IMG/VR virus record: IMGVR_UViG_3300045988_061617 | Span: 21,424-85,423 of that record | Source: a virus | Direction: 5' to 3' (one strand) | DNA: 64,000 bases | Shown here: one piece after another, positions 313 to 61,927 of the stretch | How the letters are laid out: each line of letters begins with the position of its first letter | Numbering within the stretch: position 1 is the first letter of the stretch | Position numbers and translations under genes: made by a program | Notes under the pieces: generated by a model | The model's input: the letters and a program-made list of their open reading frames with translations, nothing else | Database searches by the model: none | What the model was told of the DNA's origin: nothing

Positions 313-320
313 TATATTTG
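313..320 (+). promoter_or_regulatory. Candidate Bacteroidota-type -7 promoter box TATATTTG upstream of the structural block
   Basis: GTATATTTGGATA at 312-324 matches TAnnTTTG. It shares GTATATTTG-(C/G)ATA with the boxes at 61910 (+) and 37642 (-). It lies about 97 nt upstream of the ATG at 417, implying a long leader. Confidence 0.35.
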
Positions 321-346: not shown

Positions 347-367
347 GGTAATCGCTTAGCGATTACC
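347..367 (+). promoter_or_regulatory. Perfect 9-bp stem / 3-nt loop hairpin in the putative leader
   Basis: GGTAATCGC tta GCGATTACC is a perfect inverted repeat. No T-tract follows, so it does not look like a classical terminator. Confidence 0.5.
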
Positions 368-6050: not shown

Positions 6051-7172
6051 ATGGAAAATAAAATTGATATTACAAAGTTGAAAGCTCAGGATTTTATGAA
6101 TGAGCTGCCGGAAATGGTAAGAAGCTTGGAAGCTGTTCGTTCCGGTTCACAGGACAAGAAGCCAGTAGAAGTAACCCTTGGAGAATTGGTTACAGGTAAA
6201 TGGGGTATTACAGAAGATGAACTGTTTGAAAAGATGGGTATCAATCCAAAAGTTGATACGATGCAGAATATCTTTACTATGCCTCAGCAGAATATCCGTT
6301 GGATTGTTCCGGAAATTATCCGTGCTGCTATTACTCTGGGCATGCGTCAGGCTCCATTCTATCCGAACATTATTGCATCTGACCAACCTATCAATGGTTT
6401 GCAAGCAATCATGCCGATGGTTAATATGTCGGATGCTGCTCCTGCTAAGGTTAACGAAGCAGAAACTATCCCGTTGGGAGATGTTAGCTTCGGACAAAAA
6501 TCGGTTAGCCTTTTCAAAATTGGAAAAGGTTTCAAACTTACTGATGAAGTTCGTAACTACGTTTCACTCGATGTCCTGGGAATTTACCTTCGTGATTTTG
6601 GTGTTCAGTTGGGCTATGCTTTGGATACTTTGGCTATGGACGTGGCTATTAATGGTAACAAGGCTGATGGATCCGAGTCTGCTCCAGTAATTGGTGTATA
6701 CGAAACATCCAATGGAATCACTTACAAAGATTTGCTTCATATTTGGGTTCGTGCTGCTCGTATGGGCCGTAGCTTTACTACTATGATCGGTGGTGAAGAT
6801 CAGTCTATCGAAATGCTTAATTTGCCAGAATTCAAAGACCGTCATTCCGGTACTACTGAAGCTACACTGAATGTGAAGTCTCCAGTACCTAAGAATGCAG
6901 ACTTCTACATCCATCCGGGTACCCCTGCACAACAGCTATTGTTGATTGATACTTCCGCTGCTTTGATTAAGCTGACTGCTAAACAGTTGATGTTGGAATC
7001 AGAAAGAATCGTTTCTAACCAAACAGAAGCTGTATATGCAAGCTTAACTACCGGCTTCTCTAAGATGTACCATGATGCTGCACTCTTGTTGGCTGCAGAT
7101 AAGAAGTTTACAGAATTCGGATTCCCCGATTTCATGAATGTAGACCCATATCTGATGGTTAACCTTGAATAA
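6051..7172 (+). CDS. Major capsid protein (HK97 fold expected)
   Basis: 373 aa at the canonical position after protease/scaffold, followed by a strong intrinsic terminator. Codon usage looks cleaner than its neighbours, consistent with a highly expressed gene. Confidence 0.75.
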   Translation: MENKIDITKLKAQDFMNELPEMVRSLEAVRSGSQDKKPVEVTLGELVTGKWGITEDELFEKMGINPKVDTMQNIFTMPQQNIRWIVPEIIRAAITLGMRQAPFYPNIIASDQPINGLQAIMPMVNMSDAAPAKVNEAETIPLGDVSFGQKSVSLFKIGKGFKLTDEVRNYVSLDVLGIYLRDFGVQLGYALDTLAMDVAINGNKADGSESAPVIGVYETSNGITYKDLLHIWVRAARMGRSFTTMIGGEDQSIEMLNLPEFKDRHSGTTEATLNVKSPVPKNADFYIHPGTPAQQLLLIDTSAALIKLTAKQLMLESERIVSNQTEAVYASLTTGFSKMYHDAALLLAADKKFTEFGFPDFMNVDPYLMVNLE

Positions 7173-7201: not shown

Positions 7202-7239
7202 AGAGGTGGTTTAGGGATAAAAACCCTACCCCTCTTTTC
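7202..7239 (+). terminator. Rho-independent terminator after the capsid gene
   Basis: AGAGGTGGTTTAGGG ataaaaa CCCTACCCCTCT followed by TTTTC. The stem is about 11-13 bp and GC-rich, with small bulges. Confidence 0.7.
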
Positions 7240-17808: not shown

Positions 17809-17842
17809 AGGAGTGCATCTATTTAGGGTGTACTCCTTTTTT
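17809..17842 (+). terminator. Rho-independent terminator
   Basis: AGGAGTGC atctatttaggg GTACTCCT (8-bp stem with one G-U wobble) followed by TTTTTTC. Confidence 0.7.
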
Positions 17843-22624: not shown

Positions 22625-23089
22625 ATGGGAGCAAAAGTAAAAAATCCAAGAAAGAAGTTTCTTTGGAGTATTATGTTTCCTAAGCACCCTATCAATACAT
22701 ACCTCTTTCAAACTTGTACTTTGCCAGATGTAGAAATTGATCAGGTAGCTCATGGAGATATTAATAGAGACGTTAAGACTGCCGGTAGGGTAACAGTATC
22801 CAATTTGGTAGTAGAGAAACTTATGACTACTGCAGGTTCTGATACCTGGCTTCATGATTGGCTTTATTCTTGCCAAGACATGATAGTTGGTGGAGGATTG
22901 GTACCAAGCCAATACTGGGAAACTGCAATAGTAAACGAACTTGCCGAAGATGGAGTCTCCGTTCTTAATACCCACATCTATGAAGAAGTTTGGCCCTGTA
23001 AAATTACTGGCCTTGATTTGGATAGAATGGCTTCAGAGAATACCATTGAGTCTATTGAGTTCTCAGTTGGTACTGCAGACAAATATTAA
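22625..23089 (+). CDS. Tail tube protein
   Basis: 154 aa between the sheath and the chaperone/tape-measure genes. Followed by an intrinsic terminator. Confidence 0.6.
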   Translation: MGAKVKNPRKKFLWSIMFPKHPINTYLFQTCTLPDVEIDQVAHGDINRDVKTAGRVTVSNLVVEKLMTTAGSDTWLHDWLYSCQDMIVGGGLVPSQYWETAIVNELAEDGVSVLNTHIYEEVWPCKITGLDLDRMASENTIESIEFSVGTADKY

Positions 23090-23121: not shown

Positions 23122-23160
23122 AGGGGTGGGATTCCTGTGATAGGAGCTCACCCCTTTCTT
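23122..23160 (+). terminator. Rho-independent terminator after the tube gene
   Basis: AGGGGTGGG ... CTCACCCCT (9-bp stem with one wobble, extendable by 3 further pairs) followed by TTTCTTGTTG. Confidence 0.65.
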
Positions 23161-23210: not shown

Positions 23211-23972
23211 ATGGAATTTAGAACATTTAGTTTTACCGGACCCTCTGGTTATCAATATGAGATCAGAGAACAAAATGGTGCTGATGAAGACATTCTTAGC
23301 AACCTTAGTGATATGAAAAATTTGATGAACATAACTAAGTTCATCTCTGCCATCGTAGTAAAAACCGATGTTACACCTACGGGTAAATTAACTGTGGAAG
23401 ATGCACTTAGTCTTCCAGTTAATGACAGATATTGTATTATATTTCAATCCCGTATTTTTTCTCTGGGTGAAGAAGTAGAATTTGAATATGATTGGGGTAA
23501 AGAGAATGGAGGTAAAGTAACTTATGGCCAAGATCTAAATGAATTCCTTTTCGACTTTAGTGATAGCCCCAATGAAGAAGAGATGGATAAGAAACCCGAT
23601 GCTATCCCATTCTATCCCTATGGCAAGAGACTTAAAGATCATGAAGTAACCCTTGATTCAGGTAAGCTAATCAAATTTGACTGTATGAACGGCCATGGAG
23701 AACAAAAATTAGTATCAATGCCCTTGGATAAGCAAACTAAAAATGCTCCTCTTTTATGTAGAAACCTCTGCTTAGAGGTAGATGGTAAATGGGAAGTAGT
23801 AGAAAACTTTGCTATCTTTACTGCTAAAGATATGGCTCAAATTAGAAAACAGGTTGCTTCTATAGACCCCATATTCAAAGGAGAATCTCATATTACTAAT
23901 CCAGTAACCGGAGAAGAAAGAACTTATCCTATTATATGGGCTCCAAGTTTTTTCTACCTGACGGAAGAGTAA
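23211..23972 (+). CDS. Tail assembly chaperone (G-like, zero-frame product)
   Basis: 253-aa acidic ORF between the tube and tape measure genes. It carries a canonical -1 slippery heptamer 18 nt before its stop. Confidence 0.6.
   Translation: MEFRTFSFTGPSGYQYEIREQNGADEDILSNLSDMKNLMNITKFISAIVVKTDVTPTGKLTVEDALSLPVNDRYCIIFQSRIFSLGEEVEFEYDWGKENGGKVTYGQDLNEFLFDFSDSPNEEEMDKKPDAIPFYPYGKRLKDHEVTLDSGKLIKFDCMNGHGEQKLVSMPLDKQTKNAPLLCRNLCLEVDGKWEVVENFAIFTAKDMAQIRKQVASIDPIFKGESHITNPVTGEERTYPIIWAPSFFYLTEE
23948..23954 (+). promoter_or_regulatory. Candidate programmed -1 ribosomal frameshift site T_TTT_TTC
   Basis: The zero frame reads AGT TTT TTC (S F F), an X_XXY_YYZ heptamer in the correct register. The -1 frame is open from here through 24115. 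Confidence 0.55.
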
Positions 23973-24115
23973 TGTTAGAGAGTGATTTTGTTTATATCAC
24001 TAGAGCCGAGATAGCCTTAGACTATTTCGGCTTTTTACGCCTTCCGTATCGAATTAGGAAAATCTTCAAGGAGATGGCTGAACAATATTATAAACAATTA
24101 AAGAAAAGAAAATAA
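23972..24115 (+). CDS. 47-codon ORF in the -1 frame (T-like extension of the chaperone; also has its own ATG in a TAATG overlap)
   Basis: MLESDFVYITRAEIALDYFGFLRLPYRIRKIFKEMAEQYYKQLKKRK. It falls below the ORF-track length cutoff and ends 3 nt before the tape measure ATG. A frameshift fusion would be 248 aa + LPDGRV + these 47 aa. Confidence 0.5.
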   Translation: MLESDFVYITRAEIALDYFGFLRLPYRIRKIFKEMAEQYYKQLKKRK

Positions 24116-24118
24116 ATT

Positions 24119-26050
24119 ATGAATACCAGTAGGAGTATAATAGAGGTCGGTGTTGCCATGGTATTAAAGGATCGATTCTCTCAAGAAGCTGGCAAGATAT
24201 CTGGATCATTCAGAACCATGATGAATGACATGAGTACTTGGAATAGAGGTATTCAGATGTCAGCTTCCAATACAATGGACTTCGGAATGCAGCTCGTAGG
24301 GGGGATGGCAAAGGCCTATAAGTACTCTGCGGGTGTTCAGAATGAAGTTTGGACAGCATCGAAGATTGCTGGTGCTACTATTGCAGAGCAAAGGGAAATG
24401 TTACAATTGGCCAAAGATGTCAATGAGATAACTCCTCTTACGGCTGCCGATGTGGCATCAGGACAAAGGTACCTAGCTATGGCAGGTAATAAGTTTAATG
24501 CCATTAAAGAAATGATTGGGCCAGCATCTAAGCTTGCTTCAATCTTTACTATGCCAGTAGGACAGAAAGGTGGTGTAGCTGACTTGATGACTAACATCAT
24601 GTCAATGTACCAAATACCAATGACTGATGCCGCTAGAGTAACCGATGATTTATTTACTGCTGTTACTAATGCAAATATATCTTTAACAGACTTAGCCCAG
24701 TCTATATCTTATGCAGGGGCAGATATGGCAACTGCTGGAGTAGACCTTCGACAAACGGCTGCTGCTATTGGCGTATTGGGAGATATGGGTATACAGGGTT
24801 CTATGGCAGGTACTTCACTTGCTAATATGATACGTTACTTACAACTATCCCTTGTTAACCAAAAACAAAAAGGCTATAACGCTTTAGCAGACTTAGGCTT
24901 AAGCCCCGATGAATTCTTTGATGCTCAGGGTAATCTTATAGACCTTTACACTATCTATCAAAAGTTTGCTAAGGCCGCAATAGATTTACCTTCACGAATC
25001 GAAACCCCAACCTTCTTCAATATCTTTGGAGTTCGTGGTAATAGAGGTATGCTTCCCGTACTTAGGGACATTGCTTCTGGTAGAGATAAGATGGGTAAAA
25101 TACTTGCAACCTATGATCAAAATATTGGGGCAGTAAATAGGCTCAATGAAGAAAGGCTTCAAACGGATGCCGGTGTAATAGATCAATGGGAATCTAGTTT
25201 AGAAAACTTAACCGTTACTGCAGGTGCTGCTTTGGGCAGAGTCTTTACACCCATCCTACAAGTTGGTCAAAAGATAGTGGGCGTAATAAACTCCATGGCT
25301 GAAACTTGGGGTGGAAGTTTTGCACTTAGAGTTGCTGCTACTGGAGTAGTAGTTGGTACCATTGTTGCAGGATTCAATACCGTAAGAGGTATCATAAGGT
25401 CTGTTGGTTATTTGCAAACAATTGCTACAGCTTCTACTGAGGGTATGTCTACAGCAGCTATTAAGACTAATACTCAGTTTGCTATTATGGAAACTCATAT
25501 GATAAGCATGGTGAATCATATGAGAACTCTGGTGCAATTACAAATGATGATGGGTGGGGTTAGTATGAATAAAGCTGGTAGGTTTTATAATACCAAAACT
25601 GGCCGGTATGTTAAAACTCCGAACCCAGGAATGCCACCAGCTACTTCACTTCTTGGTGGTGCAGTGGGTGGTACCATAGTTAACCAAGCAGGTAAACAAG
25701 CTGCTAAAACTGTTGCTACTAAAGGATTAGCCTCTATAGGAGGTAGATTATTGGGATTACTTGGAGGACCCTGGGGAGCAGCTATTACGGTAGGTTTGCC
25801 ATTATTAGTAGAAGTGGGTAGTAGACTTATAAGTTCTGTTGATAGGAATACTGATGCTCAAGGTAGAGATCAAGAAGATCCTACTACTATTCGGGCTCAG
25901 AATGAAGAGAGGTTTTTAAATGCTATGAGGTCAGCTATTAGGGATGGGTTAAAGGATGGTAAGATTAACATAAGTGTAGATGGAGAAATCTTAGGAGATT
26001 ACTCCTTAGGTTCCCAACAAGATTATACTGGTGTAGCATTAGGATTATAA
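24119..26050 (+). CDS. Tail tape measure protein
   Basis: 643 aa. Core TMP region ISYAGADMATAGVDLRQTAAAIGVLGDMGIQGSMAGTSLANMI, with Gly/Ala-rich hydrophobic segments in the C-terminal half. Position after the chaperone fits. Confidence 0.85.
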   Translation: MNTSRSIIEVGVAMVLKDRFSQEAGKISGSFRTMMNDMSTWNRGIQMSASNTMDFGMQLVGGMAKAYKYSAGVQNEVWTASKIAGATIAEQREMLQLAKDVNEITPLTAADVASGQRYLAMAGNKFNAIKEMIGPASKLASIFTMPVGQKGGVADLMTNIMSMYQIPMTDAARVTDDLFTAVTNANISLTDLAQSISYAGADMATAGVDLRQTAAAIGVLGDMGIQGSMAGTSLANMIRYLQLSLVNQKQKGYNALADLGLSPDEFFDAQGNLIDLYTIYQKFAKAAIDLPSRIETPTFFNIFGVRGNRGMLPVLRDIASGRDKMGKILATYDQNIGAVNRLNEERLQTDAGVIDQWESSLENLTVTAGAALGRVFTPILQVGQKIVGVINSMAETWGGSFALRVAATGVVVGTIVAGFNTVRGIIRSVGYLQTIATASTEGMSTAAIKTNTQFAIMETHMISMVNHMRTLVQLQMMMGGVSMNKAGRFYNTKTGRYVKTPNPGMPPATSLLGGAVGGTIVNQAGKQAAKTVATKGLASIGGRLLGLLGGPWGAAITVGLPLLVEVGSRLISSVDRNTDAQGRDQEDPTTIRAQNEERFLNAMRSAIRDGLKDGKINISVDGEILGDYSLGSQQDYTGVALGL

Positions 26051-36850: not shown

Positions 36851-36927
36851 ATACTACTTGTGTTATTTATTTAATTTGTTTTGTTATTAGTATTATTTGT
36901 GCATAGAATATTCAATTGTTTGTCGGG

Positions 36928-36957
36928 AAGGGACGTTGGGAAACGTCCCTTTTCTTT
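36928..36957. terminator. Intrinsic terminator shared by convergent genes
   Basis: AAGGGACGTT ggga AACGTCCCTT (perfect 10-bp stem) followed by TTCTTTG on the + strand. It lies between the + strand fibre stop (36850) and the - strand gene stop (36961). Confidence 0.75.
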
Positions 36958-36960
36958 GTG

Positions 36961-37614
36961 TTAATACTTAAGTTCTTCTTTAGCTCTATCTTCCCAATAT
37001 TGTATATCTTGTCTAAGTTCTGAGATATATCTCATGGACTCATTAGTCTTAGGCATTTCAAAAAATTCTACAAGCATAATATTGGTAATTCGAGTACTAT
37101 TACCAAGTCTCTCTTTAATGAAAGGTGGAGGAGTAATCAATACTTCAAATAAGAGATAGGCATCTGGAGAAAGCTTATCCTTCATATAGGTATACATTAT
37201 ATCAAGCATTTCTGATTTAGCTTTCTCTTCTTCGGTATCATCCTCTAATTCTTTATCATTATCGAATAAATCATCCAGTTTAAAGAGGCTTTGATTATAC
37301 TCTGCTTGTTCTCCGTATGCAGAACGAAGCAATTTATTCTTAAATGTACTCAAGGAAGCAAGAATCCTTGCTTTGAGATGTTCTTCAGTACATTCACCAT
37401 AGTATTTATTAAAAACAAATAACATCTTGTCCCAGAAATAAGACTGAATTATATCTGGTGTAAGATTAAACCTTTTATAATCAATCTGTCTGGTAAGATT
37501 CCTAATCACTGGCTTACAGACTTTATAAAGTCTATTGAAAGTAGCTTCATCATATTCTTGCATAGGTTTTAATCGATGAAGCTCTGAGCCATTATTTCCT
37601 TTACTTTTTCCCAT
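36961..37614 (-). CDS. Putative phage sigma factor (sigma-70 region 2 / region 4-like)
   Basis: FNRLYKVCKPVIRNLTRQI...DIIQSYFWDKMLFVFNKY...FKNKLLRSAY resembles ECF-type region 2. An acidic linker follows, and the C-terminal ITNIMLVEFFEMPKTNESMRYISELRQDI resembles a region-4 HTH. It is the only complete minus-strand gene. Confidence 0.45.
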   Translation of the reverse strand: MGKSKGNNGSELHRLKPMQEYDEATFNRLYKVCKPVIRNLTRQIDYKRFNLTPDIIQSYFWDKMLFVFNKYYGECTEEHLKARILASLSTFKNKLLRSAYGEQAEYNQSLFKLDDLFDNDKELEDDTEEEKAKSEMLDIMYTYMKDKLSPDAYLLFEVLITPPPFIKERLGNSTRITNIMLVEFFEMPKTNESMRYISELRQDIQYWEDRAKEELKY

Positions 37615-37624
37615 GTTTTTAAAT

Positions 37625-37642
37625 ATTCGTTATGCAAATATA
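37625..37642 (-). promoter_or_regulatory. Promoter box TATATTTGCATAACGAAT (minus strand) upstream of the sigma-like gene
   Basis: The reverse complement of 37625-37642 is TATATTTGCATAACGAAT. It contains TAnnTTTG and is identical over 18 nt to 61910-61927 (+). The G of TTTG lies 21 nt upstream of the ATG at 37614. Confidence 0.55.
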
Positions 37643-37788
37643 AGTATTTTTTCTTATATAAAATAATAATATTAAATATTCGGGAGCTTAAGGTAGTGGA
37701 TTAGTAGTTTCTAGTTAGTTGTCAACATACTCAGAACTATCTCGGTACTATCAAAATCTATTGGTTTATATAATATTGCAATATAGAT

Positions 37789-39225
37789 ATGAAAAAGTTT
37801 AAAGACAACATCAAGTTTAGTTTTTCTCCTGAGTTTCAGTTTGAGATACTCAGGTTTGTTTTAAAAGATAAGGAAGGAGGATTAGTTCTTAAAAGGATTA
37901 AATCCAATTACCTGGTTCTCATAGAACACTCCCTTATCTTCGAGGGTATATCAAAATATTTTAAGAAGCAAGGCAGAATGCCCTCTGAGAATATTCTAAA
38001 AGAAGTATTAAAAGAATTGCTAGAATCAAAAGCATATATTGATTTGGTAACTAAGGATGACACCCCTAATATCAATAAGTTAATAAGCAATTTATATCAC
38101 ATTCCCTTATCGGATGCAGATTATATCAAGGAAAAAATTTACCAGTTCTCTACCTATGTTGAAATGAAGAACCTGAATGACTCTTTTGATTTAGATAACT
38201 TCGAACAATATGAAGAGTATTCAAGGAAGATTGAGAAAGTACTTCAGAAAAGTAAACCAAAGAAAGAGGACGAACCTATATACATGATTCGAGATATTAC
38301 AGAGAGACAGTTTAAAAGACAATCAGAACCCTCGGTAATACCCTGTCCCTTTAGGCAATTAAATGACCTTACTAATGCAGGAGGTTATCCCGAACATTCT
38401 ATTAATGTAATATTGGATAAACCTAAAGCAAAGAAAACTTTCTTCATGGTAAACCTTGCCCGAGGTTATCTTCGAATGAAGAAATCCGTATTATACGTAG
38501 ATACCGAGAATGGTAAAGACCAAATCATGGACAGATTTATTCAATCTAGTATCAATAAAACCAAAAAGGAATTATACTCAGGTGAGTATGATAAACTTGA
38601 AGCTAAACATTTAAGAAAGCTTGCAAGATTTGGGGTTGAATTGGTGGTTGAGAGGGTACCAGCAATGATTACTAATACCACTTATATAAGGGAAAAGATA
38701 ATTCAACTTCGTAATCAAGGAATCGATATTAAAGTTCTTATGGTTGACTACGCTGGTAAGCTTGCATCAATAGCGGGTGATAGAGAAGATTTCGAAAGGA
38801 TATCTAATGTATATATAGACTTGAGTAACTTAGCCGAAGAAATGAAACTTGATATAATCTGGACTGCACATCATATTACTAGAGAGGGTAAAAAACATAG
38901 AAAAACCAGATATGATGAAAATGATATATCTGGTTCTATAGCCATAGTAAGAAATGCTCAAGTAATTATGGGGTTAAATGCTACAGAACAAGAAGAAAGG
39001 GATGATATATTAAGGGCCGAGATAGTGGTTCAAAGGGATGGTCTACCATCAGGTAGAGCTCTTTTTAAATGCTCTACAGAAACTCAACGGTGTACCGAAT
39101 TTACTAGAGAACAACGAAAAGAATATGACAGGGTATATGGAGAACAACTAGATAATTCTCTAAAAAGTTCTAGTAACCCAGATGCTAATATAGAGAAATA
39201 TAACAAAAAGCAAGGAGATATATAA
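37789..39225 (+). CDS. DnaB-like replicative DNA helicase
   Basis: The C-terminal RecA-type domain is colinear with DnaB motifs: FRQLNDLTNAGG, ILDKPKAKKTFFMVNLA (H1), VLMVDYAGKL (H2), ISNVYIDLSNLAEEMKLDIIWTAHHITREG, DISGSIAIVRNAQVIMGL, AEIVVQRDG. Confidence 0.75.
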   Translation: MKKFKDNIKFSFSPEFQFEILRFVLKDKEGGLVLKRIKSNYLVLIEHSLIFEGISKYFKKQGRMPSENILKEVLKELLESKAYIDLVTKDDTPNINKLISNLYHIPLSDADYIKEKIYQFSTYVEMKNLNDSFDLDNFEQYEEYSRKIEKVLQKSKPKKEDEPIYMIRDITERQFKRQSEPSVIPCPFRQLNDLTNAGGYPEHSINVILDKPKAKKTFFMVNLARGYLRMKKSVLYVDTENGKDQIMDRFIQSSINKTKKELYSGEYDKLEAKHLRKLARFGVELVVERVPAMITNTTYIREKIIQLRNQGIDIKVLMVDYAGKLASIAGDREDFERISNVYIDLSNLAEEMKLDIIWTAHHITREGKKHRKTRYDENDISGSIAIVRNAQVIMGLNATEQEERDDILRAEIVVQRDGLPSGRALFKCSTETQRCTEFTREQRKEYDRVYGEQLDNSLKSSSNPDANIEKYNKKQGDI

Positions 39226-39806
39226 TGAAAGATAATATACCAGGATTTATGGGATACTACGTTTCTAAAACTGGGAGCGTATATTCAAGATATGTCCGAG
39301 GAAGTAGGGGTAAATTAAGTAATGAGTTTACCCCACTAATACCAAAGAAACGTCCCAAATACTATAGTGTATCCCTTTATAGGGATGGTAAGTCTACAAA
39401 GATTTTTGTTCACAGATTAGTAGCTACTGTTTATGTACCTAACCCCAATAATTTACCTGTAGTAATGCACTTAGATAACGATATTTATAATAATTATTAT
39501 AAGAATCTAAAATGGGGTACCCAGAAAGAAAATGTATACCAATCTATCAGGGATGGTAATAATCTGATTTCAGTAATGGGTAAGGATAATATACATCGTA
39601 AATTAAACTTAAATGATATACCTAAAGTAAAAGCTTATTATAATACATTACTATCTGAACTAATCCAATTAGGGTTTACTAAATGGAAAGTAAACAAAAC
39701 TTTATTAAGGGTTCTAGGAAAGAGATTTGGAGTTGGTGATAGGGTAATTCGTAATATATTAAATAACAGTTATGAAAACAAAGAAAGTAGAGGTAGTAAA
39801 AGATAG
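39225..39806 (+). CDS. HNH_3 homing endonuclease (paralog 1)
   Basis: VHRLVATVYVPNPNNLPVVMHLDNDIYNNYYKNLKWGTQKEN (HNH_3 motif) plus a C-terminal HTH (LGKRFGVGDRVIRNILNN). Free-standing between the helicase and primase genes. Confidence 0.85.
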   Translation: MKDNIPGFMGYYVSKTGSVYSRYVRGSRGKLSNEFTPLIPKKRPKYYSVSLYRDGKSTKIFVHRLVATVYVPNPNNLPVVMHLDNDIYNNYYKNLKWGTQKENVYQSIRDGNNLISVMGKDNIHRKLNLNDIPKVKAYYNTLLSELIQLGFTKWKVNKTLLRVLGKRFGVGDRVIRNILNNSYENKESRGSKR

Positions 39807-39951: not shown

Positions 39952-40879
39952 ATCTAGACTAAGGACATACTTTATTAAACGATTGGGAGGTTACGATTAC
40001 CGGCATGGCTGGATGCGTATACCAACTTGCCCCTATTGTGGGAGAGAACATAAGTTGGGAGTTAACCTTTCTATGTATAGAACCAATTGTTTTAGATGTA
40101 ATGCCCATCCTTCTCCTGCTCAACTAATAATGGATATAGAAGGATTTACTGAGTACCATGAACTAATTAATTTTTTGAACAATGGCCAATTTGATGAACT
40201 ACAGTTTAAGGAAGAGAAAATCGAACTTGCCGAAAGTAAGCCAGTATATCTCCCTGAGGGATTTAGAAACATTTCGCTCGGGGATAGCCAACTTGCAAAA
40301 AGCATTCGGGGATATATCAAGAAACGCGGATTTAGCCTCGAGAAGTTTTCAAGATACGGTATCGGCTATGGAACAAGCGGCTCAACGTATGGGTACCTCA
40401 TTATACCCTTTTATTACAAAGGCCAACTTAGATATTACAATGCTCGAAATGTTATTGGCAAAGGACCCAGATATAATAACCCAGACAAAGACATCACCGG
40501 TTTGGGAAAACAATTTATCATCTTTAATCATGATGCGTTGGAGATGTATCGGTCGGTATTCATTTGCGAAGGGGCACTTAATGCTCTCACAATTGGGGAT
40601 AGAGCAATTGCCACAATGGGCAAAGCTGTATCTAAATATCAGCTAAACGAATTAATAAAAGCTCCTTGTCAAAGGTATATAATCCTATTAGACTTTGATG
40701 CTCAAAAGTATGCTATAGAATTAGCCTTGAAACTTATACAATACAAGAAAGTAAAATTAGTTCTTTTTGATGATAATCGGGATGTAAATGATTTGGGTAG
40801 GAAAGCAGTTCTTAAAAAGGTTTATAAGACCAGATATACTACCTATCAAGGATTAATCAAACTTAAAAACTCACTATGA
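39929..40879 (+). CDS. DNA primase (zinc-ribbon + TOPRIM)
   Basis: CPYCGREHK...CFRCNAH (CxxC..CxxC zinc ribbon). TOPRIM Glu in VFICEGALNALT and DxD in ILLDFDAQ. The start could be downstream (M at 40013) if the small ORF at 39772 is real. Confidence 0.8.
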   Translation: MKITNQFKSRLRTYFIKRLGGYDYRHGWMRIPTCPYCGREHKLGVNLSMYRTNCFRCNAHPSPAQLIMDIEGFTEYHELINFLNNGQFDELQFKEEKIELAESKPVYLPEGFRNISLGDSQLAKSIRGYIKKRGFSLEKFSRYGIGYGTSGSTYGYLIIPFYYKGQLRYYNARNVIGKGPRYNNPDKDITGLGKQFIIFNHDALEMYRSVFICEGALNALTIGDRAIATMGKAVSKYQLNELIKAPCQRYIILLDFDAQKYAIELALKLIQYKKVKLVLFDDNRDVNDLGRKAVLKKVYKTRYTTYQGLIKLKNSL

Positions 40880-41406
40880 TGAAAGATAACGTACCAGGTT
40901 TTATAGGTTACCACATTACTAAATATGGAGAACTGTATTCAAGACGAGTAGAGAAATCTCCTTATAAGTTTGGTAAATGGCGTAAATTAAAACTTTCGAA
41001 AAAGCGTAGAGTTAAGGTAAAACTTTATAGGGGTCAGGTTGGTTATAATTTGAGTATAAGTAGGTTAGTAGCTTTAGTTTATGTGTATAATCCTAATCCC
41101 TATAAGTTTAATGAAGTAATGCACTTAGATAATAACCCATTAAATAATTACTATAAGAATCTTCAATGGGGTACACATAGTATGAATATACAACAGATGA
41201 TTTTTGAACAGAGGAGAAGATCTTTCAAAACTACTCAAAACCCAAACTGGGAGAATTTTAAAATTTCTGATAGAAAACAGAGAAGATTAAGAAGGCTAAT
41301 TGATTTAGGTAAAAGTAGGGTATATATTAGTAGAAGGTTAAGGGTGTCACGTAAAACGCTCTATAATTTTATTCATAGAATCCAAATCCGAAACTCTTTG
41401 GAGTGA
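40876..41406 (+). CDS. HNH_3 homing endonuclease (paralog 2)
   Basis: ISRLVALVYVYNPNPYKFNEVMHLDNNPLNNYYKNLQWGTHSMN plus a C-terminal HTH (RRLRVSRKTLYNFIHR). It shares the exact 18-mer AGTAATGCACTTAGATAA with paralog 1. Confidence 0.85.
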   Translation: MMKDNVPGFIGYHITKYGELYSRRVEKSPYKFGKWRKLKLSKKRRVKVKLYRGQVGYNLSISRLVALVYVYNPNPYKFNEVMHLDNNPLNNYYKNLQWGTHSMNIQQMIFEQRRRSFKTTQNPNWENFKISDRKQRRLRRLIDLGKSRVYISRRLRVSRKTLYNFIHRIQIRNSLE

Positions 41407-42473: not shown

Positions 42474-43061
42474 ATGAAAGGTTTACAATTTTTCGGAAAC
42501 AGAGTAGAGGATGCAGCTAATGCTTTTATAGATGTCCTCAAGTATTCAGACCAATCCGTGGATTATCCAGATTTTAAGGATATCGAACCATGGCCTGATG
42601 AGATAATTAATATGTTCTATGTGATTTGGAAGAATGCCAAGTTCTCAGAACTAAGTGCCATCATTATGTATACCCAACAGTCTTCTAGATTTGAAGAAAT
42701 ATCAGAATTGATGTTGGGTATTGGTTTGGTAGAGATGAGACACCTTGATAAGATATCGGACTTTTTACAAAAGGCAGATCCCTATGAGGATTACTCTACC
42801 ATGAATATTAATCCTACGATTGAGATTGGTTCTACTTGGGAACAAGCTTTAAAGATTGCTTTGAATTCCGAGATAGAAACTATTGGTCACTACAAGAAAA
42901 TTCAAAGAGCAATTGCTCAATACGAAGAACGCCCAGATTACGATGACGTGAATTATTTCCTTGAGAAATTGATTGCGGATGAGGAGCATCATATTAAACT
43001 TCTCAAGGAAGCAATGGGTATGGATAAATCTACTAAGGGTGTAACGGTAATTATCAAATGA
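42474..43061 (+). CDS. Ferritin-like di-metal carboxylate protein (Mn-catalase / CotJC-like)
   Basis: Four-helix E / ExxH / E / ExxH ligand pattern: FSELSAIIMYTQQS, GLVEMRHLD, SEIETIGHY, ADEEHHIKLL. Confidence 0.5.
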   Translation: MKGLQFFGNRVEDAANAFIDVLKYSDQSVDYPDFKDIEPWPDEIINMFYVIWKNAKFSELSAIIMYTQQSSRFEEISELMLGIGLVEMRHLDKISDFLQKADPYEDYSTMNINPTIEIGSTWEQALKIALNSEIETIGHYKKIQRAIAQYEERPDYDDVNYFLEKLIADEEHHIKLLKEAMGMDKSTKGVTVIIK

Positions 43062-46077: not shown

Positions 46078-46914
46078 GTGGACATAAGAAATATAAGAGA
46101 AGAAGTACCTCAAATAAAAGATACTGAGGTACTTTCAAATATGTATATATTGGGTATAGAACAATTAAATGGGTATAGGGAAATAGAATCATTACCTGAA
46201 TATCCTTTCGATGTTAATAGCCCAAAGAATCAGGTAGTATTAAAAGATTTTATAGGTAGAGTAATAGAAGAACTTACCGAGGGTTTTGAATCTACAGATG
46301 AAGTATTCGAACTTTGCAGTAAGCAGGGATGGAATATTGAGATGCTTAATGAAGAAGAGTACCAATCTATATTGAATTCTCTTTCTAATGCAAATGAAGA
46401 ACAAGCTGATGCTTTAGGTTTTTTCTTTACTCTTCTAGTATATTCAAATATACTCCCAGAAGATATACTAAAATATCATAAAGTTAATAACTTATTCGAA
46501 GTAATGGCTACTGGAGTTAAAGAATTGGTTATTAAATACCCAGATTATCAGAACTTACTAAAATTCGATATTATATGTGAAGAGGATTTTTATGAAGATA
46601 AAGATAAATGGGAACATATAAAATCTTACACTCCAGGCTTCCATCAGATGAATGAATTATCTCATGAAGCCGATAAGTTATATTTATGGGAAGTAATCTA
46701 TGAACTTAATAAAGCCAGGAATTTCCTTAAATGCAGGCCTTGGAAACAAACTCAAGTAATGACTAAGGAAATAGATTTTCAAGAATCCTTAGTAAAGGCT
46801 TTCTATCTCTATATGGGATTCTTAGCAATGAACGGATTTACTCCTCTTGGTTTATTTAGTTTATTCTTTAAAAAACAACGCCTTAATTTATGGCGTCAAA
46901 CTTCAAATTATTAA
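46078..46914 (+). CDS. All-alpha NTP pyrophosphohydrolase-like protein (dimeric dUTPase / MazG / T4 gp56 superfamily), putative
   Basis: GTG start. Acidic helix motifs VIEELTEGFES and ANEEQADALGFFF, then CRPWKQTQ and a C-terminal KKQRLNLWRQTSNY. These resemble the dimeric dUTPase-family pattern (E..E, E..D, WK, K..LN.(F/W)RQ..(G/N)Y). Confidence 0.35.
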   Translation: MDIRNIREEVPQIKDTEVLSNMYILGIEQLNGYREIESLPEYPFDVNSPKNQVVLKDFIGRVIEELTEGFESTDEVFELCSKQGWNIEMLNEEEYQSILNSLSNANEEQADALGFFFTLLVYSNILPEDILKYHKVNNLFEVMATGVKELVIKYPDYQNLLKFDIICEEDFYEDKDKWEHIKSYTPGFHQMNELSHEADKLYLWEVIYELNKARNFLKCRPWKQTQVMTKEIDFQESLVKAFYLYMGFLAMNGFTPLGLFSLFFKKQRLNLWRQTSNY

Positions 46915-46915
46915 C

Positions 46916-47404
46916 ATGAAGAAAGACAATATACCAGATTACCCAAACTTCTATATTTCTAAAAGAGGTAGAGTTTGGAAAAGGATAAGAGATGGTACTT
47001 GGAAAGAATTACCATATATTAAAAATCCTACTAGAGGTTATTTATATGTTAGTTTAAGTAAGGGAAAGAAATTTAGGTTGAATAGGTTAGTTGCCATGAT
47101 TCATATACCTAATCCAAATAACCTACCCATTGTAATGCACCTTGATAATAACATTTACAATAACCATTATAAGAATCTTAAGTGGGGTACTTATAAGGAG
47201 AATACTCAACAAATGATGAGAGAAGGTAGGAATAATGGTCAGTTTAAGTCTACCATTACTAAACAACAGATTAGTTTAATACTAGAGAAATATACTACGG
47301 GTAAATATTCTCAGATTCAATTAGCTAAGTTGGTGGGACTTAAGAGTCAGGGTAGAATAAGTAGAATTATAAATAAGTATCAACGTGTCAGGATGGAACC
47401 ATAA
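46916..47404 (+). CDS. HNH_3 homing endonuclease (paralog 3)
   Basis: MKKDNIPDYPNFYISKRG...LNRLVAMIHIPNPNNLPIVMHLDNNIYNNHYKNLKWGTYKEN plus an HTH (LAKLVGLKSQGRISRIINKY). The ATG at 46916 lies 1 nt after the upstream stop and is preferred to the ORF-track start at 46847. Confidence 0.85.
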   Translation: MKKDNIPDYPNFYISKRGRVWKRIRDGTWKELPYIKNPTRGYLYVSLSKGKKFRLNRLVAMIHIPNPNNLPIVMHLDNNIYNNHYKNLKWGTYKENTQQMMREGRNNGQFKSTITKQQISLILEKYTTGKYSQIQLAKLVGLKSQGRISRIINKYQRVRMEP

Positions 47405-49068: not shown

Positions 49069-49106
49069 AGGGATGTATCTACTACTGGTAGGTATGTCCC
49101 TTTTTC
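49069..49106 (+). terminator. Rho-independent terminator between the TS-like gene and the DNA polymerase gene
   Basis: AGGGATGTATCTAC tactg GTAGGTATGTCCCT (14-bp stem, 3 of them G-U wobbles) followed by TTTTTCTATTTT. Confidence 0.7.
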
Positions 49107-53062: not shown

Positions 53063-53455
53063 ATGAATTATTCGATGACTTTTATCTCAACTTATGTAGC
53101 TGAGAAACTAAATCAGAGTTTACCTGGTACTCCAACTGAAAACCGGGTACTTATTGTATCTCCAAAAGATGTAAACACAACTAAAGCGGGTATCATTATT
53201 CCTGGGCAAGTAAAAGAGGGAGTTCCTCGAAAAGGGGTAATTATTAAATCTGGAGAAATTACTGAAGAGTATAAAACTTATAGAGATCTTTGTCAAATAG
53301 GTAGAATTGTTACCTATGGTATGTATGCTGGTAAAGAACTAGAGTTTGATACTTCTCTATTACCAGAGGCTTTATCAAAAATAATGGAGAACAATGAAAT
53401 CACGGTTCTATCCATGAACGAAATTATTTATTCAGAACCCAATAACGTAGACTAA
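53063..53455 (+). CDS. GroES/Cpn10-like co-chaperonin (T4 gp31 analogue)
   Basis: NRVLIVSPKDVNTTKAGIIIPGQVKEGVPRKGVIIKSGE...GRIVTYGMYAGKELEFD is colinear with GroES (DRVlV...e.kT.gGIvlp......k...G.VvavG ... vGD.V....y.G.e). Confidence 0.6.
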   Translation: MNYSMTFISTYVAEKLNQSLPGTPTENRVLIVSPKDVNTTKAGIIIPGQVKEGVPRKGVIIKSGEITEEYKTYRDLCQIGRIVTYGMYAGKELEFDTSLLPEALSKIMENNEITVLSMNEIIYSEPNNVD

Positions 53456-54290: not shown

Positions 54291-54333
54291 GAAGGAGGTA
54301 ATTAGATTCGTTCAGTTATCTCCTTCTTTAGTT
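54291..54333 (+). terminator. Rho-independent terminator
   Basis: GAAGGAGGTAATT agattcgttc AGTTATCTCCTTC (7 perfect GC-rich bp plus an AT/wobble extension) followed by TTTAGTTT. Confidence 0.6.
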
Positions 54334-56362: not shown

Positions 56363-56942
56363 ACGAATAATGTTTGTAGGTCCCTCTGGTATAGGAAAAA
56401 CCACTTTAGCTAAATATGTAGCTAAGAAAGAAGATATACCTTTTATCTCTGGTAGTATGTCGGATTTATTGCCTGCTACTAAAGATGTATCACATAGTGA
56501 GATATTATCTCTTGGTTCGGAGGCAATGTATAAATCAGACTTTCAACTTCTGAACTTGAGAAATAGGTTATTCAAAGATAAAGAATATTTCGTAACAGAT
56601 AGAAGTTATGCAGACTTAGCTGCTTATTTCTGGTACAAACAATCAAAAAGTATACCTGAATGTGAAATAGAACATTTTATTTGTCAATGTAGGACTTTGA
56701 TGGAAGGTCAATGTGATGTAGCTATATTTTTACCATTATCCCTAAGTACTTATAAGAATTGGTCAATGGAAGACAATGGTAAAAGAATACTCAATAGATT
56801 CTTTCAAGTTCAGATCTCTTCTCTTATGAGTGAACTACTTGCAAATTGGGAAATACCTACCATTTGTATTTCGGATTTGAATTTAGAAATGAGAATAGGA
56901 CAAATAGATTATCATCTAAGTAGAATATGGGAAAAGAAGTAA
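56355..56942 (+). CDS. P-loop deoxynucleotide/deoxynucleoside kinase-like protein
   Basis: Walker A FVGPSGIGKTTLAKY. VTDRSYADLAAYF resembles the (E/D)RS motif of dNK-family kinases. 195 aa. Confidence 0.55.
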   Translation: MSKRIMFVGPSGIGKTTLAKYVAKKEDIPFISGSMSDLLPATKDVSHSEILSLGSEAMYKSDFQLLNLRNRLFKDKEYFVTDRSYADLAAYFWYKQSKSIPECEIEHFICQCRTLMEGQCDVAIFLPLSLSTYKNWSMEDNGKRILNRFFQVQISSLMSELLANWEIPTICISDLNLEMRIGQIDYHLSRIWEKK

Positions 56943-59637: not shown

Positions 59638-60171
59638 ATGGCAAACTCAAAAAAGAAGGGGAATCGTTTTGAGCTAAAGATATCAAAATGGTTCACTCAA
59701 TGGACTACATATAAATTTGGAAGAACACCCTACTCTGGAGCAAATCATCAGAGTAGGGATTTGGCTTCAGATATCATGTGTCAAGATGAAAGACATGCTC
59801 ATAGGTGTAAGATATCAGTAGAATGCAAAAACTATAAGGATATCAAATTTGAACATATCCTTCTCGGCAATAAAAACTGTGATATATTAAAATTCTGGGA
59901 ACAAGCAAGTAAAGATGCTGAAAGAGCAAATAAAGTTCCCATTCTCTGTATGAGGTATAACTCAATGCCTTCCGAAGAATTTTTCTTTGTAGTAGGTAAG
60001 AAACTTGCTCCAGTATTTTATAGGCCTCTATTTAACAAATGTAATATCATGGTAATAGATGTACCTAAAATAGATGAGATTCTTTATGTATTCATGGCTA
60101 GTAATATATTAGAGAATGTAAACTATAAGTTAGTACATAAACAAGCAAAGTCAATTCTTAAAAACCCATAA
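59638..60171 (+). CDS. PD-(D/E)xK nuclease, Holliday-junction-resolvase-like
   Basis: N-terminal KKGNRFELKISKWF, then D ... ECK (ASDIMCQD...KISVECKNYKD), as in archaeal Hjc-related phage endonucleases. Confidence 0.5.
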   Translation: MANSKKKGNRFELKISKWFTQWTTYKFGRTPYSGANHQSRDLASDIMCQDERHAHRCKISVECKNYKDIKFEHILLGNKNCDILKFWEQASKDAERANKVPILCMRYNSMPSEEFFFVVGKKLAPVFYRPLFNKCNIMVIDVPKIDEILYVFMASNILENVNYKLVHKQAKSILKNP

Positions 60172-60175
60172 ACTC

Positions 60176-60892
60176 ATGAAAAAGCATACCCCATATAAAT
60201 ACTGTATATTCTATATAGAAAGGAAATACTACGATCGAATTAACAAAGAACTTAAGGAAAAGGGGTATGATAAAATAAAAGCCATCATACCTACAGTAAG
60301 TATATTAAAAAAGACCACTAAAGGTAAAATGGTATTTGAGGATGTACCGGTATTATTTAATTATGGGTTTATGAGAATACCTACAGAATTGGCATACTCA
60401 AGGCCATTTTTAAATAAACTAAAAAGAAGTATATCTGGTATACGTACTTGGTTAAGAGATACAGAAACTCTTCATCCAAGAAAGAAAAAAGCCCGTATAG
60501 ATAATGCAGAAGACTTTGATGATTTTTCTTTAGTTGCTACTTGTAGTAGAAAAGATGTAAGGAGATTCATTAGAATATCAAAAGATAACAAAAGATTTTC
60601 TGTTGAGGATTTAGTCAATGTAGAAATTGGCGATTACATAGTACTTAGAGGATATCCCTATGAAGGGATAGATGCTACCGTATTAGAAGTAGATCACCTA
60701 TGTAAACGGGTAAAAGTACTTATTTATCCAGAAATGGGTAAAATGGAAGTATGGTTACCCTTCGATAATGTAATTTATAGTGTATATCAAAATTATGACC
60801 CTGATAAGTTATTTGCTAATCAAGGAGATTTTGACCCAAATCAGATTACCAGTGAAGCAATAGATAATATTATGAATATAAGAAAAGGATAG
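60176..60892 (+). CDS. NusG/RfaH/UpxY-like transcription elongation factor (NGN + KOW)
   Basis: NGN-like KYCIFYIERKYYDRINKELKEKGYDKIKAIIPTVSILKKTTKGKMVFEDVPVLFNYGFMRIP. KOW-like VEIGDYIVLRGYPYEGIDATVLEVDHLCKRVKVLIYPEMGKMEVWLPFDNV. Confidence 0.65.
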   Translation: MKKHTPYKYCIFYIERKYYDRINKELKEKGYDKIKAIIPTVSILKKTTKGKMVFEDVPVLFNYGFMRIPTELAYSRPFLNKLKRSISGIRTWLRDTETLHPRKKKARIDNAEDFDDFSLVATCSRKDVRRFIRISKDNKRFSVEDLVNVEIGDYIVLRGYPYEGIDATVLEVDHLCKRVKVLIYPEMGKMEVWLPFDNVIYSVYQNYDPDKLFANQGDFDPNQITSEAIDNIMNIRKG

Positions 60893-60894
60893 TT

Positions 60895-61878
60895 ATGATG
60901 AATGAGGCTCAGAAAAAAGCATGGGATTGTTTAATAGATAGGGAACAACAATCTTTATTCCTCCAATTATCTGAAAACAAGTCTTCGTGGGAAGCTGGTG
61001 AAATTTTAAAGTTATCTCATTATAAGTATCTTGAAATCCGAGAAAGGTCAGAAAAATTCTTTAGGCTATTCTCGGATTTTTTTGAGAAACACACTTCTAT
61101 TTTTCGACCAGATTGTCCATGTGAAAGAAATTTTCAAGATTATATTGAGGGTTGTTTAGAGAAAAGGCTAACAAGGAAACAAGCCAGTTTATACACTGGA
61201 GATTCTGCTCAAATACTTTCTAAAGTAAATTCTAAAAATATAGACAGGAATATCAAAAGGATGAAAGAATCCGATAATGAGTGGGATAAGGATACTCTAA
61301 GACTAATTTTTGAATTTGATAGGTGGAATAACTTTAGAATACTTCCAAGAATGCTACAACAGCCTTCTGCATTTAAGAGAAGGTCGAATAAGAAAGATAA
61401 GATATACATCAAATATCTTCTTAATAGAATTCCAGAATGGATGCACACTAAACTAAAGGAAAGGTTTAGATATAAAGTAAAACCTGGGAAGAAAAAGTAT
61501 TGGGTATGCTTAATATCAGAAGACTTATATACGGATGGTTATCTATTAATGCCAGTAAGACCCTTGGAAGAAGTGGTAAATGAGTTTAGTAGATTTTATA
61601 TGTATGTTTTTGAGAAAAAAGACGATGCCGATACTTTTGGTTTTATGGTATCTAAGTTTATGATTAAAACTGGTACAGTAAAACTTGGACAAAAATTCTG
61701 GCCTGAGTACCGTTGCTGTGTGGAAAAAGCAGTAAACTATAATCAAGTAAACAACATAGAATTCAACGTAAAGAAATTAGATATGGCTTATAATATCCAT
61801 ACACACAGAAAACCGAAAAAACCTAAGTCTACTGCTGTAGAACGGGCAAAAACCTCGGATTTTTATAAAAATAAATAG
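60895..61878 (+). CDS. Hypothetical protein with an N-terminal sigma region-4-like HTH
   Basis: LIDREQQSLFLQLSENKSSWEAGEILKLSHYKYLEIRERSEKFF resembles an L..re..v..L......s..EiA..l.iS..tV pattern. The rest is basic and unassigned. Confidence 0.3.
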   Translation: MMNEAQKKAWDCLIDREQQSLFLQLSENKSSWEAGEILKLSHYKYLEIRERSEKFFRLFSDFFEKHTSIFRPDCPCERNFQDYIEGCLEKRLTRKQASLYTGDSAQILSKVNSKNIDRNIKRMKESDNEWDKDTLRLIFEFDRWNNFRILPRMLQQPSAFKRRSNKKDKIYIKYLLNRIPEWMHTKLKERFRYKVKPGKKKYWVCLISEDLYTDGYLLMPVRPLEEVVNEFSRFYMYVFEKKDDADTFGFMVSKFMIKTGTVKLGQKFWPEYRCCVEKAVNYNQVNNIEFNVKKLDMAYNIHTHRKPKKPKSTAVERAKTSDFYKNK

Positions 61879-61909: not shown

Positions 61910-61927
61910 TATATTTGCATAACGAAT
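61910..61927 (+). promoter_or_regulatory. Promoter box TATATTTGCATAACGAAT upstream of the 61954 gene cluster
   Basis: Contains TAnnTTTG and is 18/18 identical to the minus-strand box at 37625-37642. It sits in a 75-nt AT-rich gap, with the G of TTTG 37 nt upstream of the ATG. In this copy it is flanked by the inverted pentamers ATTCG ... CGAAT (61905-61927). Confidence 0.55.

Follow-up and report, generated by a model that had tools for sequence, protein, structure and literature searches.

The stretch of DNA considered here, hereafter the window, comprises 64,000 nucleotides (nt) of a virus, positions 21,424 to 85,423 of the IMG/VR record IMGVR_UViG_3300045988_061617, and the elements of interest are two adjacent genes that encode a NusG-like protein and its partner protein (Table 1). 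The long open reading frames (ORFs) of the window all lie on the plus strand save one, and the G+C content is 31-41%. A structural block is followed by a bidirectional terminator, a lone minus-strand gene, a replication/recombination block, the NusG-like/partner pair and a series of small unknown ORFs. The replication/recombination block encodes a DnaB-like helicase, a superfamily 2 (SF2) helicase, dUTPase, thymidylate synthase, PolA, Cpn10, gp32, RecA, a 5'-3' exonuclease, SbcD, SbcC and a PDDEXK nuclease.

Predicted fold and family profiles indicate that the ORF at 60176-60892 is a genuine but divergent, phage-specific specialised NusG paralogue with an NGN and a KOW domain, whose nearest models are the specialised antiterminator paralogues UpxY, LoaP and RfaH. 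Searched alone, the window protein has no Pfam match at an expectation value (E) of 1 or less, no PHROG match and nothing useful among PDB sequences. An AlphaFold2 (AF2) model built on the family alignment reaches a mean predicted local distance difference test score (pLDDT) of 69, with a beta-alpha-beta NGN part at 85-93, a helical linker region, and a C-terminal domain that this single prediction (pLDDT 65-83) folds into five beta strands at about amino acids (aa) 150-201. In a Foldseek comparison with the PDB, all 31 of the matches with E<=1e-3 are NusG, RfaH or Spt5 (best 2.3e-9), and they include RfaH bound to paused complexes (8phk, 5ond), an ops-paused one among them. Furthermore, a profile of 26 family sequences (A1) matches Spt5/NusG KOW domains at E=0.007-0.03 (Spt5 0.0067), a more diverse profile of 52 sequences (A3) matches NusG KOW chains at E=3e-5 to 1e-3, and hhalign yields an alignment with E. 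coli RfaH that is collinear through both NGN and KOW (E=0.0016) and pairs the invariant family motif P-LFNYGF with PLFPNYLFV of RfaH. The NGN-like and KOW-like segments that an earlier note, made from the sequence, had recognised in this ORF are thus confirmed by profile and structure comparison, with the Foldseek value of 2.3e-9 and the KOW profile value of 3e-5 as the best figures.

When 52 diverse family members were scanned individually against NCBIfam, Pfam and PHROG models, the NCBIfam UpxY model (NF033644) matched 34 of them (best E 1e-10), followed by NCBIfam NusG (TIGR00922; 24 of 52, best E 6.1e-07), LoaP (20 of 52, 9.1e-07) and RfaH (NF006534; 18 of 52, 4.7e-06), and by Pfam NusG (PF02357; 13 of 52, 4.8e-06); PHROG 6386, named 'transcription antiterminator', matched 25 of 52 with a best E of 1.6e-10. 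An exhaustive search of 1.8 billion representative proteins returned only 197 clusters, all of about 200-270 aa, and the NusG-like family therefore stands by itself, with no transition to cellular NusG. A basic/acidic insert of about 20 aa, RKKKARIDNAEDFDDFS in the window protein, is conserved in the family; it separates the last NGN strand from the linker helix. A homologue with 79% identity, BFVD entry A0A8S5LRJ5, carries the UniProt name 'DNA-directed RNA polymerase subunit alpha', which is very likely a mis-annotation.

The partner has 567 homologues, all of them unannotated. Its model (pLDDT 79) is mainly helical, and the sole consistent structural matches are to region 4 of extracytoplasmic function (ECF) and primary sigma factors (SigD, SigH, SigR, SigA) over 51-67 aligned columns; these Foldseek matches have template modelling (TM) scores of 0.65-0.78, normalised to the target, and probabilities up to 0.99, with E of only about 1-4 because the matched domain is short. 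The earlier description of this ORF as starting with a sigma region-4-like helix-turn-helix (HTH) is accordingly borne out at the level of predicted fold only. Profile searches of PDB and Pfam gave no sequence-level sigma support, and the matches to designed repeat proteins and the weak match to UPF0203 that they returned were judged spurious. An hhalign comparison of the partner family with E. coli RpoE covered 20 columns only, was not significant and gave no sigma-4 alignment; neither structure nor sequence matched sigma region 2 in the partner, and the rest of the protein beyond the N-terminal domain matched nothing in these searches. Among the homologues, two stretches hardly vary: the putative recognition helix, SHYKYLEIRER, and, further along the protein, the motif EFDRWNNFRILP..LQQPSAFKRR.

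A strong terminator-like hairpin (61036-61084) is found inside the partner coding sequence, 140 nt past the NusG-like gene, where it covers aa 47-62 (IRERSEKFFRLFSDFF) and has a free energy (dG) of about -16.5 to -20 followed by T7-T8. Close relatives keep this hairpin with wobble or synonymous changes, and it is lost at 60% identity. Its stability is reached by 82 of 2000 synonymous-codon shuffles, and the evidence for selection on it is marginal.

The NusG-like and partner genes are adjacent in seven of the seven relatives examined (MT121964, L167, L169, L172, L173, L253 and L255), in which identity to the window NusG-like protein falls from 60% to about 22%, and the order gp32-RecA-exonuclease-SbcD-SbcC-PDDEXK-NusG-like-partner is kept in every one of them. 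The two genes overlap or nearly abut, with the exception of L253/L254, where a gap of 115 nt separates them. Scans of viral contigs with two distant family members gave no match, and the gene contexts of these two were obtained by exact look-up. Judged by this gene neighbourhood, the 327-aa protein is an obligate partner of the NusG-like protein.

A promoter box of the Bacteroides type follows the pair. The consensus TAnnTTTG, mostly as TATATTTGCA, stands just past the partner gene in the window and in six of the seven relatives (L253 ends before the site), and on a contig that reaches further than the window, five intergenic promoter boxes fall in the following 9 kb, compared with one or two in the 37-kb structural block and one in the 24-kb replication block. 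From promoter density and gene order, and from nothing else, we infer that the small-ORF block is an early region read by unmodified host polymerase and that the pair closes the replication (middle) string. On either side of the -7 box at 61910 stand the arms of an inverted repeat, ATTCGT/ACGAAT, a possible operator. An identical 17-mer, TATATTTGCATAACGAA, occurs at two promoters, at 61910-61926 on the plus strand and at 37626-37642 on the minus strand; the lone minus-strand gene served by the latter encodes 217 aa with no family match. Upstream of the pair, a hairpin at 59728-59759 in the PDDEXK nuclease gene has a dG of -20.2 against a synonymous-shuffle mean of -11.6 (11 of 2000 shuffles reach its value) and a poor T-tract.

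The window is part of a contractile-tailed gut phage of about 85 kb of the 'Flandersviridae' type, with Bacteroides or Parabacteroides as probable host; the assignment is made because layout and size fit the published description of this family (PMC8008677), and contigs that encode an identical NusG-like protein reach 86 kb. 'Flandersviridae' is a candidate family whose hosts were identified as Bacteroides and Parabacteroides by CRISPR spacers, and the paper that describes it mentions no NusG-like gene (PMC8008677). A Shine-Dalgarno-like core stands upstream of seven of the 57 ORFs, against a random background of 14%, the upstream regions are rich in A (49%), and the Bacteroides -7 box TAnnTTTG occurs in intergenic regions of the window; these features fit a Bacteroidota host. 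Host inference from species genomes was rejected, as its six matches are mis-binned contigs in metagenome-assembled genomes of unrelated taxa. The only two GenBank phage records with NusG-like homologues are both metagenomic and unannotated, and the GenBank phage set contains no relative in culture.

A uniform terminator finder (hairpin dG<=-12 plus T-tract, both strands) made 13 calls on the plus strand, nine of them intergenic (eight distinct hairpins, with 36925 and 36929 nested) in gaps that make up about 6% of the sequence, and 13 calls on the other strand, every one of them intragenic. The earlier note had named at least six terminators inside co-directional gene strings and, in addition, the hairpin at 24004: all seven are real, each a stable hairpin with a T-rich tract in an intergenic gap on the coding strand, but the one at 36925 marks the end of the structural block, where it faces the converging minus-strand gene, and is not internal. 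Five of the seven keep their position, with unrelated sequences, in MT121964, a phage about 50% identical whose proteins are about 26-74% identical to those of the window; three follow the orthologues of genes 6051-7172 (from its position and size the presumed major capsid gene), 22625-23089 and 23211-23972, one closes the structural block and one separates the gp32 and RecA genes. At the equivalent of 49069, MT121964 has three tRNA genes (Met-CAT, Pro-TGG and Leu-TAA; L164 49129-49460) before polA, and the window has no tRNA genes. In the 54291 hairpin, one stem position is A-T, T-A or C-G among close relatives, and these compensatory changes, with three Watson-Crick pairs at one position, show directly that pairing is under selection. 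About 15 nt separate the T-tract of 49069 from the polA start codon, and about 22 nt that of 54291 from the recA start codon; no room is left for a promoter, so these genes and the NusG-like gene downstream need read-through. A hairpin at 55513 was considered as an eighth terminator and rejected; it lies in the coding sequence of the 5'-3' exonuclease (LLIDGENILHQSFH) and is not kept in relatives.

Table 1. Coordinates of the gene pair, promoters, terminators and gene blocks, in positions of the window
Feature	Position	Strand	Remarks
NusG-like gene, 238 aa	60176-60892	+	Predicted fold and family profiles
NGN domain, aa 7-94	60194-60457	+	AF2 model, Foldseek
Family-specific basic/acidic insert RKKKARIDNAEDFDDFS and linker helix, aa 95-145	60458-60610	+	Family alignment and model
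KOW domain, aa 146-201	60611-60778	+	Model and profiles
Conserved C-terminal tail, ~37 aa, aa 202-238		+	Family alignment
Partner gene, 327 aa	60895-61878	+	Starts 2 nt past the stop codon of the NusG-like gene
Sigma-region-4-like HTH, N-terminal ~65 aa of the partner	60895-61089	+	Predicted fold only
Bacteroides-type -7 promoter box TATATTTG(CA)	61910-61917	+	Directly past the pair, opens the promoter-dense small-ORF block
-7 box	37635-37642	-	Drives the lone minus-strand gene 36961-37614
-7 box TATATTTG	313-320	+	Host-type, upstream of the structural (terminase-to-tail) string
Perfect 9-bp leader hairpin GGTAATCGC-TTA-GCGATTACC	347-367	+	Read from the sequence
Hairpin plus T-tract	7202-7234	+	dG -14.4; past gene 6051-7172; counterpart at the same MT121964 position
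Hairpin plus T6	17809-17836	+	dG -17.0; inside the structural gene string
Terminator-like hairpin	23122-23154	+	dG -21.6; MT121964 counterpart 23335-23361, unrelated sequence
Hairpin plus T5	24004-24031	+	dG -14.6; MT121964 counterpart 24329-24358
Strong bidirectional terminator	36925-36954	both	Between the last structural gene (+) and the minus-strand gene; MT121964 counterpart 37611-37645
Strong terminator	49069-49100	+	dG -19.1; T-tract ends ~15 nt before the polA start codon (49118)
Terminator-like hairpin	54291-54326	+	dG -17.7; gap between gp32-like and RecA-like genes, ~22 nt before the recA ATG; MT121964 counterpart 56545-56575
Structural block	417-36850	+	Large terminase at 1043-2545
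Replication/recombination block	37789-60171	+	Precedes the NusG-like and partner genes

Taken with the gene pair, these terminators suggest a mechanism to which we give an even chance, namely that the NusG-like protein, together with its obligate partner, promotes processive, terminator-resistant transcription of the phage gene strings by the host polymerase. By analogy with NusG, RfaH, UpxY and LoaP (PMC7819879, PMC11685472), the NGN domain would dock on the clamp helices of the elongating host RNA polymerase, and the docked polymerase would become more processive and less prone to pausing and termination. Transcription could then pass the intrinsic terminators that punctuate the long co-directional strings, and the partner would most likely supply either targeting, through a DNA or promoter contact, or a second contact with RNA polymerase. 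The pair would be made after the promoter-dense small-ORF block, a timing deduced by gene order only because its genes are the last of the replication/recombination string, and it would act chiefly on the structural and replication strings, which contain the terminators.

Several observations weigh against this proposal. All model scores of the 52 family members are far under the curated cut-offs; the cut-off for UpxY is 100 bits, the best relative reaches 37.4 bits and the window protein has no UpxY match at E<=1, and for TIGR00922 (cut-off 135.7 bits) the relatives reach at most about 21 bits. The NusG-like gene stands at the 3' end of the replication module, unlike upxY, which heads its target operon. 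In addition, it lies downstream of the terminators at 49069 and 54291, and its own expression therefore already requires read-through without the NusG-like protein. The terminators could simply be constitutive attenuators that work independently of this protein, since terminators in phage operons may serve as attenuators or as stabilisers of mRNA 3' ends without a dedicated factor.

Further points of the same kind concern the site at which the protein would be loaded. A possible promoter at 313 followed by a leader with a perfect hairpin had been noted earlier, and both are present, as a TATATTTG box and a 9-bp stem. Perfect hairpins as good as this one number six in the window, where about 2.6 are expected, the stability of the leader RNA as a whole is not unusual (z=-1.26), and Rfam has no match anywhere in the window. 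Of 80 close relatives, 49 have the leader hairpin, in which nothing but the loop varies; relatives designated 'type B' lack it, and their upstream sequence is unrelated. The NusG-like proteins of contigs _014485 (type B) and _046922 (type A) are 100% identical, and the hairpin, which is missing alongside an identical protein, therefore cannot be an obligatory loading site; no other site was found in its place. Family members differ strongly in the sequence that precedes the first structural gene. The opsX consensus of Bacteroides, YGCGNAGCR, has no match in the window, and the hairpin core GCTTAGC merely resembles it; the RfaH ops sequence GGCGGTAGnnTG has 12 matches in the window at two mismatches against 14.5 expected, none of them in a leader. 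Recruitment in a 5' leader, which the earlier note had cited as established for RfaH and UpxY, is not supported for the phage protein, as the window contains no ops or opsX consensus and the hairpin is absent from relatives with an identical protein.

Two other motifs of this region were tried and rejected. CTTAGCG, regarded as ops-like, occurs twice in the leader and four times in the window against 2.4 expected, which is not significant, and GGTAAT...ATTACC, with five matches against 0.27 expected, was discarded because each hexamer is common by itself (68 and 38 copies) and internal pairing is absent from the other four matches. An AT-rich segment at 184-267, between a terminator-like hairpin (64-93) and the box at 313, contains a long TA-rich palindrome at 184-207 and another at 227-267. 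Relatives of 'type A' conserve this segment, which may serve as an origin, as a packaging site or as a cluster of promoters.

The absence of a conserved recruitment motif, and the occurrence of an identical NusG-like protein with unrelated leaders, would suit a protein that loads independently of any site and acts as a general NusG decoy, displacing host NusG and blocking the NusG-assisted Rho termination that silences foreign DNA, and not acting on the intrinsic terminators. The divergent KOW domain and the family-specific C-terminal tail point the same way, as the contacts of NusG with its host partners need not persist in such a protein, and exclusion of NusG and Rho is a known property of RfaH-like paralogues (PMC7819879). 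We nevertheless consider a decoy rather unlikely, as it leaves the obligate sigma-4-like partner unexplained, Rho has no established role in Bacteroides phage infection, and the conserved hairpin terminators point to intrinsic termination as the relevant barrier.

The pair could also be read as a late-gene activator comparable to T4 gp55/gp33 or MotA/AsiA, in which the partner redirects the polymerase to phage promoters and the NusG-like protein co-activates. The sigma-4-like HTH with its invariant recognition-helix motif SHYKY and the place of the pair at the end of the replication (presumed middle) gene string agree with such a switch at initiation. Sister clades offer a candidate phage-specific promoter as well: they carry exactly one copy of CCCCCCTATAATCCCCCC, a C-rich TATAAT motif, 35-75 nt upstream of the first structural gene (L175 1157-1172, L190 1159-1174, L233 1123-1138, L245 1124-1139, plus 41 more), which may be a phage-specific, possibly late, promoter. 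This motif is absent from both the window and MT121964, and the window has the host-type box at 313 instead; moreover, the partner has neither a detectable sigma region 2 nor sequence similarity to sigma factors, and proteins of the NusG family are not known to act at initiation. A switch of this kind therefore seems quite unlikely.

A more specific version of the processive mechanism gives both proteins a defined contact. The beta-flap tip of RNA polymerase is the site used by sigma region 4 and NusA. With the NGN domain on the beta' clamp helices and the sigma-4-like domain of the partner on the flap tip, the pair would form a two-point clamp, that is, a heterodimeric processive antiterminator that excludes NusA, hinders the terminator hairpin at the RNA exit channel and possibly also serves as a late-gene switch; in this full form the idea is distinctly improbable.

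The resemblance to UpxY, the best-matching cellular model, raises one other prospect, that the phage protein competes with host UpxY or NusG and thereby reprogrammes or shuts off host transcription, for instance of capsule operons. Capsule type controls phage susceptibility in Bacteroides. UpxY and UpxZ also function as adjacent gene pairs (PMC11685472). However, the resemblance to UpxY is distant, with 37 bits at most, the partner shares neither size nor fold with UpxZ, and the pair is strictly conserved as a core feature of an apparently lytic phage, beside replication genes. Interference with the host needs no opsX-like site, and nothing supports the idea directly; it is highly improbable.

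Other features of the window and its relatives lie outside the pair. The replication module includes genes for a rubrerythrin/ferritin-like protein (42474-43061), in agreement with the oxidative-stress genes reported for gut Bacteroidota phages, and for the GroES-like co-chaperonin Cpn10 (53063-53455). Three paralogous ORFs of the same module (39225-39806, 40876-41406 and 46847-47404) all match one minus-strand stretch of MT121964 (2205-2684); related ORFs in L081-L083 carry Pfam HNH_3, one of them at a site without a counterpart in the window, and the three look like mobile homing endonucleases between replication genes. Many of the IMG/VR contigs of the family that measure about 85 kb stop 3.05-3.17 kb past the NusG-like gene, at a point equivalent to about 64.0 kb in the window (L014, L021, L025, L038, L054, L055, L060, L072 and L075), and this shared end points to a break that recurs in assembly, to a variable region or to a terminus of the genome.

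Phage-encoded NusG-like proteins have precedents in annotation, and the description of such an antiterminator in the earlier note as unusual for a phage was overstated. Database pipelines already label relatives 'antiterminator' (PHROG 6386, 25 of 52), UniProt contains phage proteins with RfaH or NusG names, the Joint Genome Institute (JGI) names the NusG-like family NusG, and prophages have been noted to carry rfaH-like genes (PMC7593976). The literature searched contained no characterised NusG homologue encoded by a phage. NusG-like proteins of this kind are already known; new here are the insert and the tail, the obligate partner, and the place of the gene in the genome of a lytic-type phage.

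Specialised NusG paralogues such as RfaH, UpxY and LoaP are a well-studied cellular means of protecting long operons, and a phage that has its own copy, tied to a novel partner, would show viral takeover of the only universally conserved transcription factor. The NusG-like family is a core feature of Flanders-like phages, which are reportedly about as prevalent in human guts as crAss-like phages and which carry about 20 kb of 'unknown' genes and an unexplored regulation. If the two-point clamp were true, it would be a phage-encoded heterodimeric antiterminator in one of the most prevalent phage families of the human gut. Recombinant Bacteroides fragilis RNA polymerase is available together with pause and termination assays (PMC11685472), so the prediction can be put to a direct test even if no phage is in culture.

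Among known systems, the NusG paralogues of Bacteroides capsule operons, UpxY, share with the phage protein the NGN+KOW layout, the probable host phylum and a conserved neighbouring partner gene, and they are thought to keep the polymerase going along long gene strings. UpxY is the best-scoring model for the phage family (34 of 52), yet the scores remain far under the 100-bit cut-off. The phage protein differs in its basic/acidic insert of about 20 aa and its C-terminal tail of about 37 aa, and the gene order differs too: upxY comes first in its target operon and is followed by upxZ, whereas the phage gene closes the gp32-RecA-SbcCD-PDDEXK string and is followed by the 327-aa sigma-4-like protein and a promoter. 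In addition, opsX, which combines a pause hairpin with a non-template hairpin of the sequence YGCGNAGCR, was not found in the window.

RfaH of Proteobacteria resembles the phage protein in the collinear hhalign match, including the clamp-helix motif of the PLFPNYLFV type, and the phage gene, which likewise is not the first of a target operon, would have to act in trans. The window has no ops element, in contrast to the RfaH system, and the phage KOW domain is predicted as a beta-barrel in a single AF2 model at pLDDT 65-83, a confidence that would also allow a switch of fold, whereas that of RfaH is an autoinhibitory alpha-hairpin. K10, H20, R23 and Q24 of RfaH are the positions that contact ops. 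In the hhalign alignment they fall on other residues in the phage family, for example a nearly invariant E15 at K10.

LoaP of Firmicutes, PHROG 6386, the UniProt entries A0A6J5MAV8 and A0A6J5PZH6, and ActX are likewise specialised NusG paralogues on mobile or accessory DNA; LoaP and PHROG 6386 match 20 and 25 of the 52 relatives, and the window protein itself matches no PHROG. Unlike the pair described here, these phage and plasmid proteins have not been described with an obligate sigma-4-like partner. Finally, the classical antiterminators (lambda N and Q, the put RNA of HK022, Xp10 p7 and P23-45 gp39) lead to the outcome proposed here, a host polymerase that resists terminators on long phage operons; they have an unrelated fold and use host NusG or none, whereas in the present case the phage brings its own protein of the NusG family.

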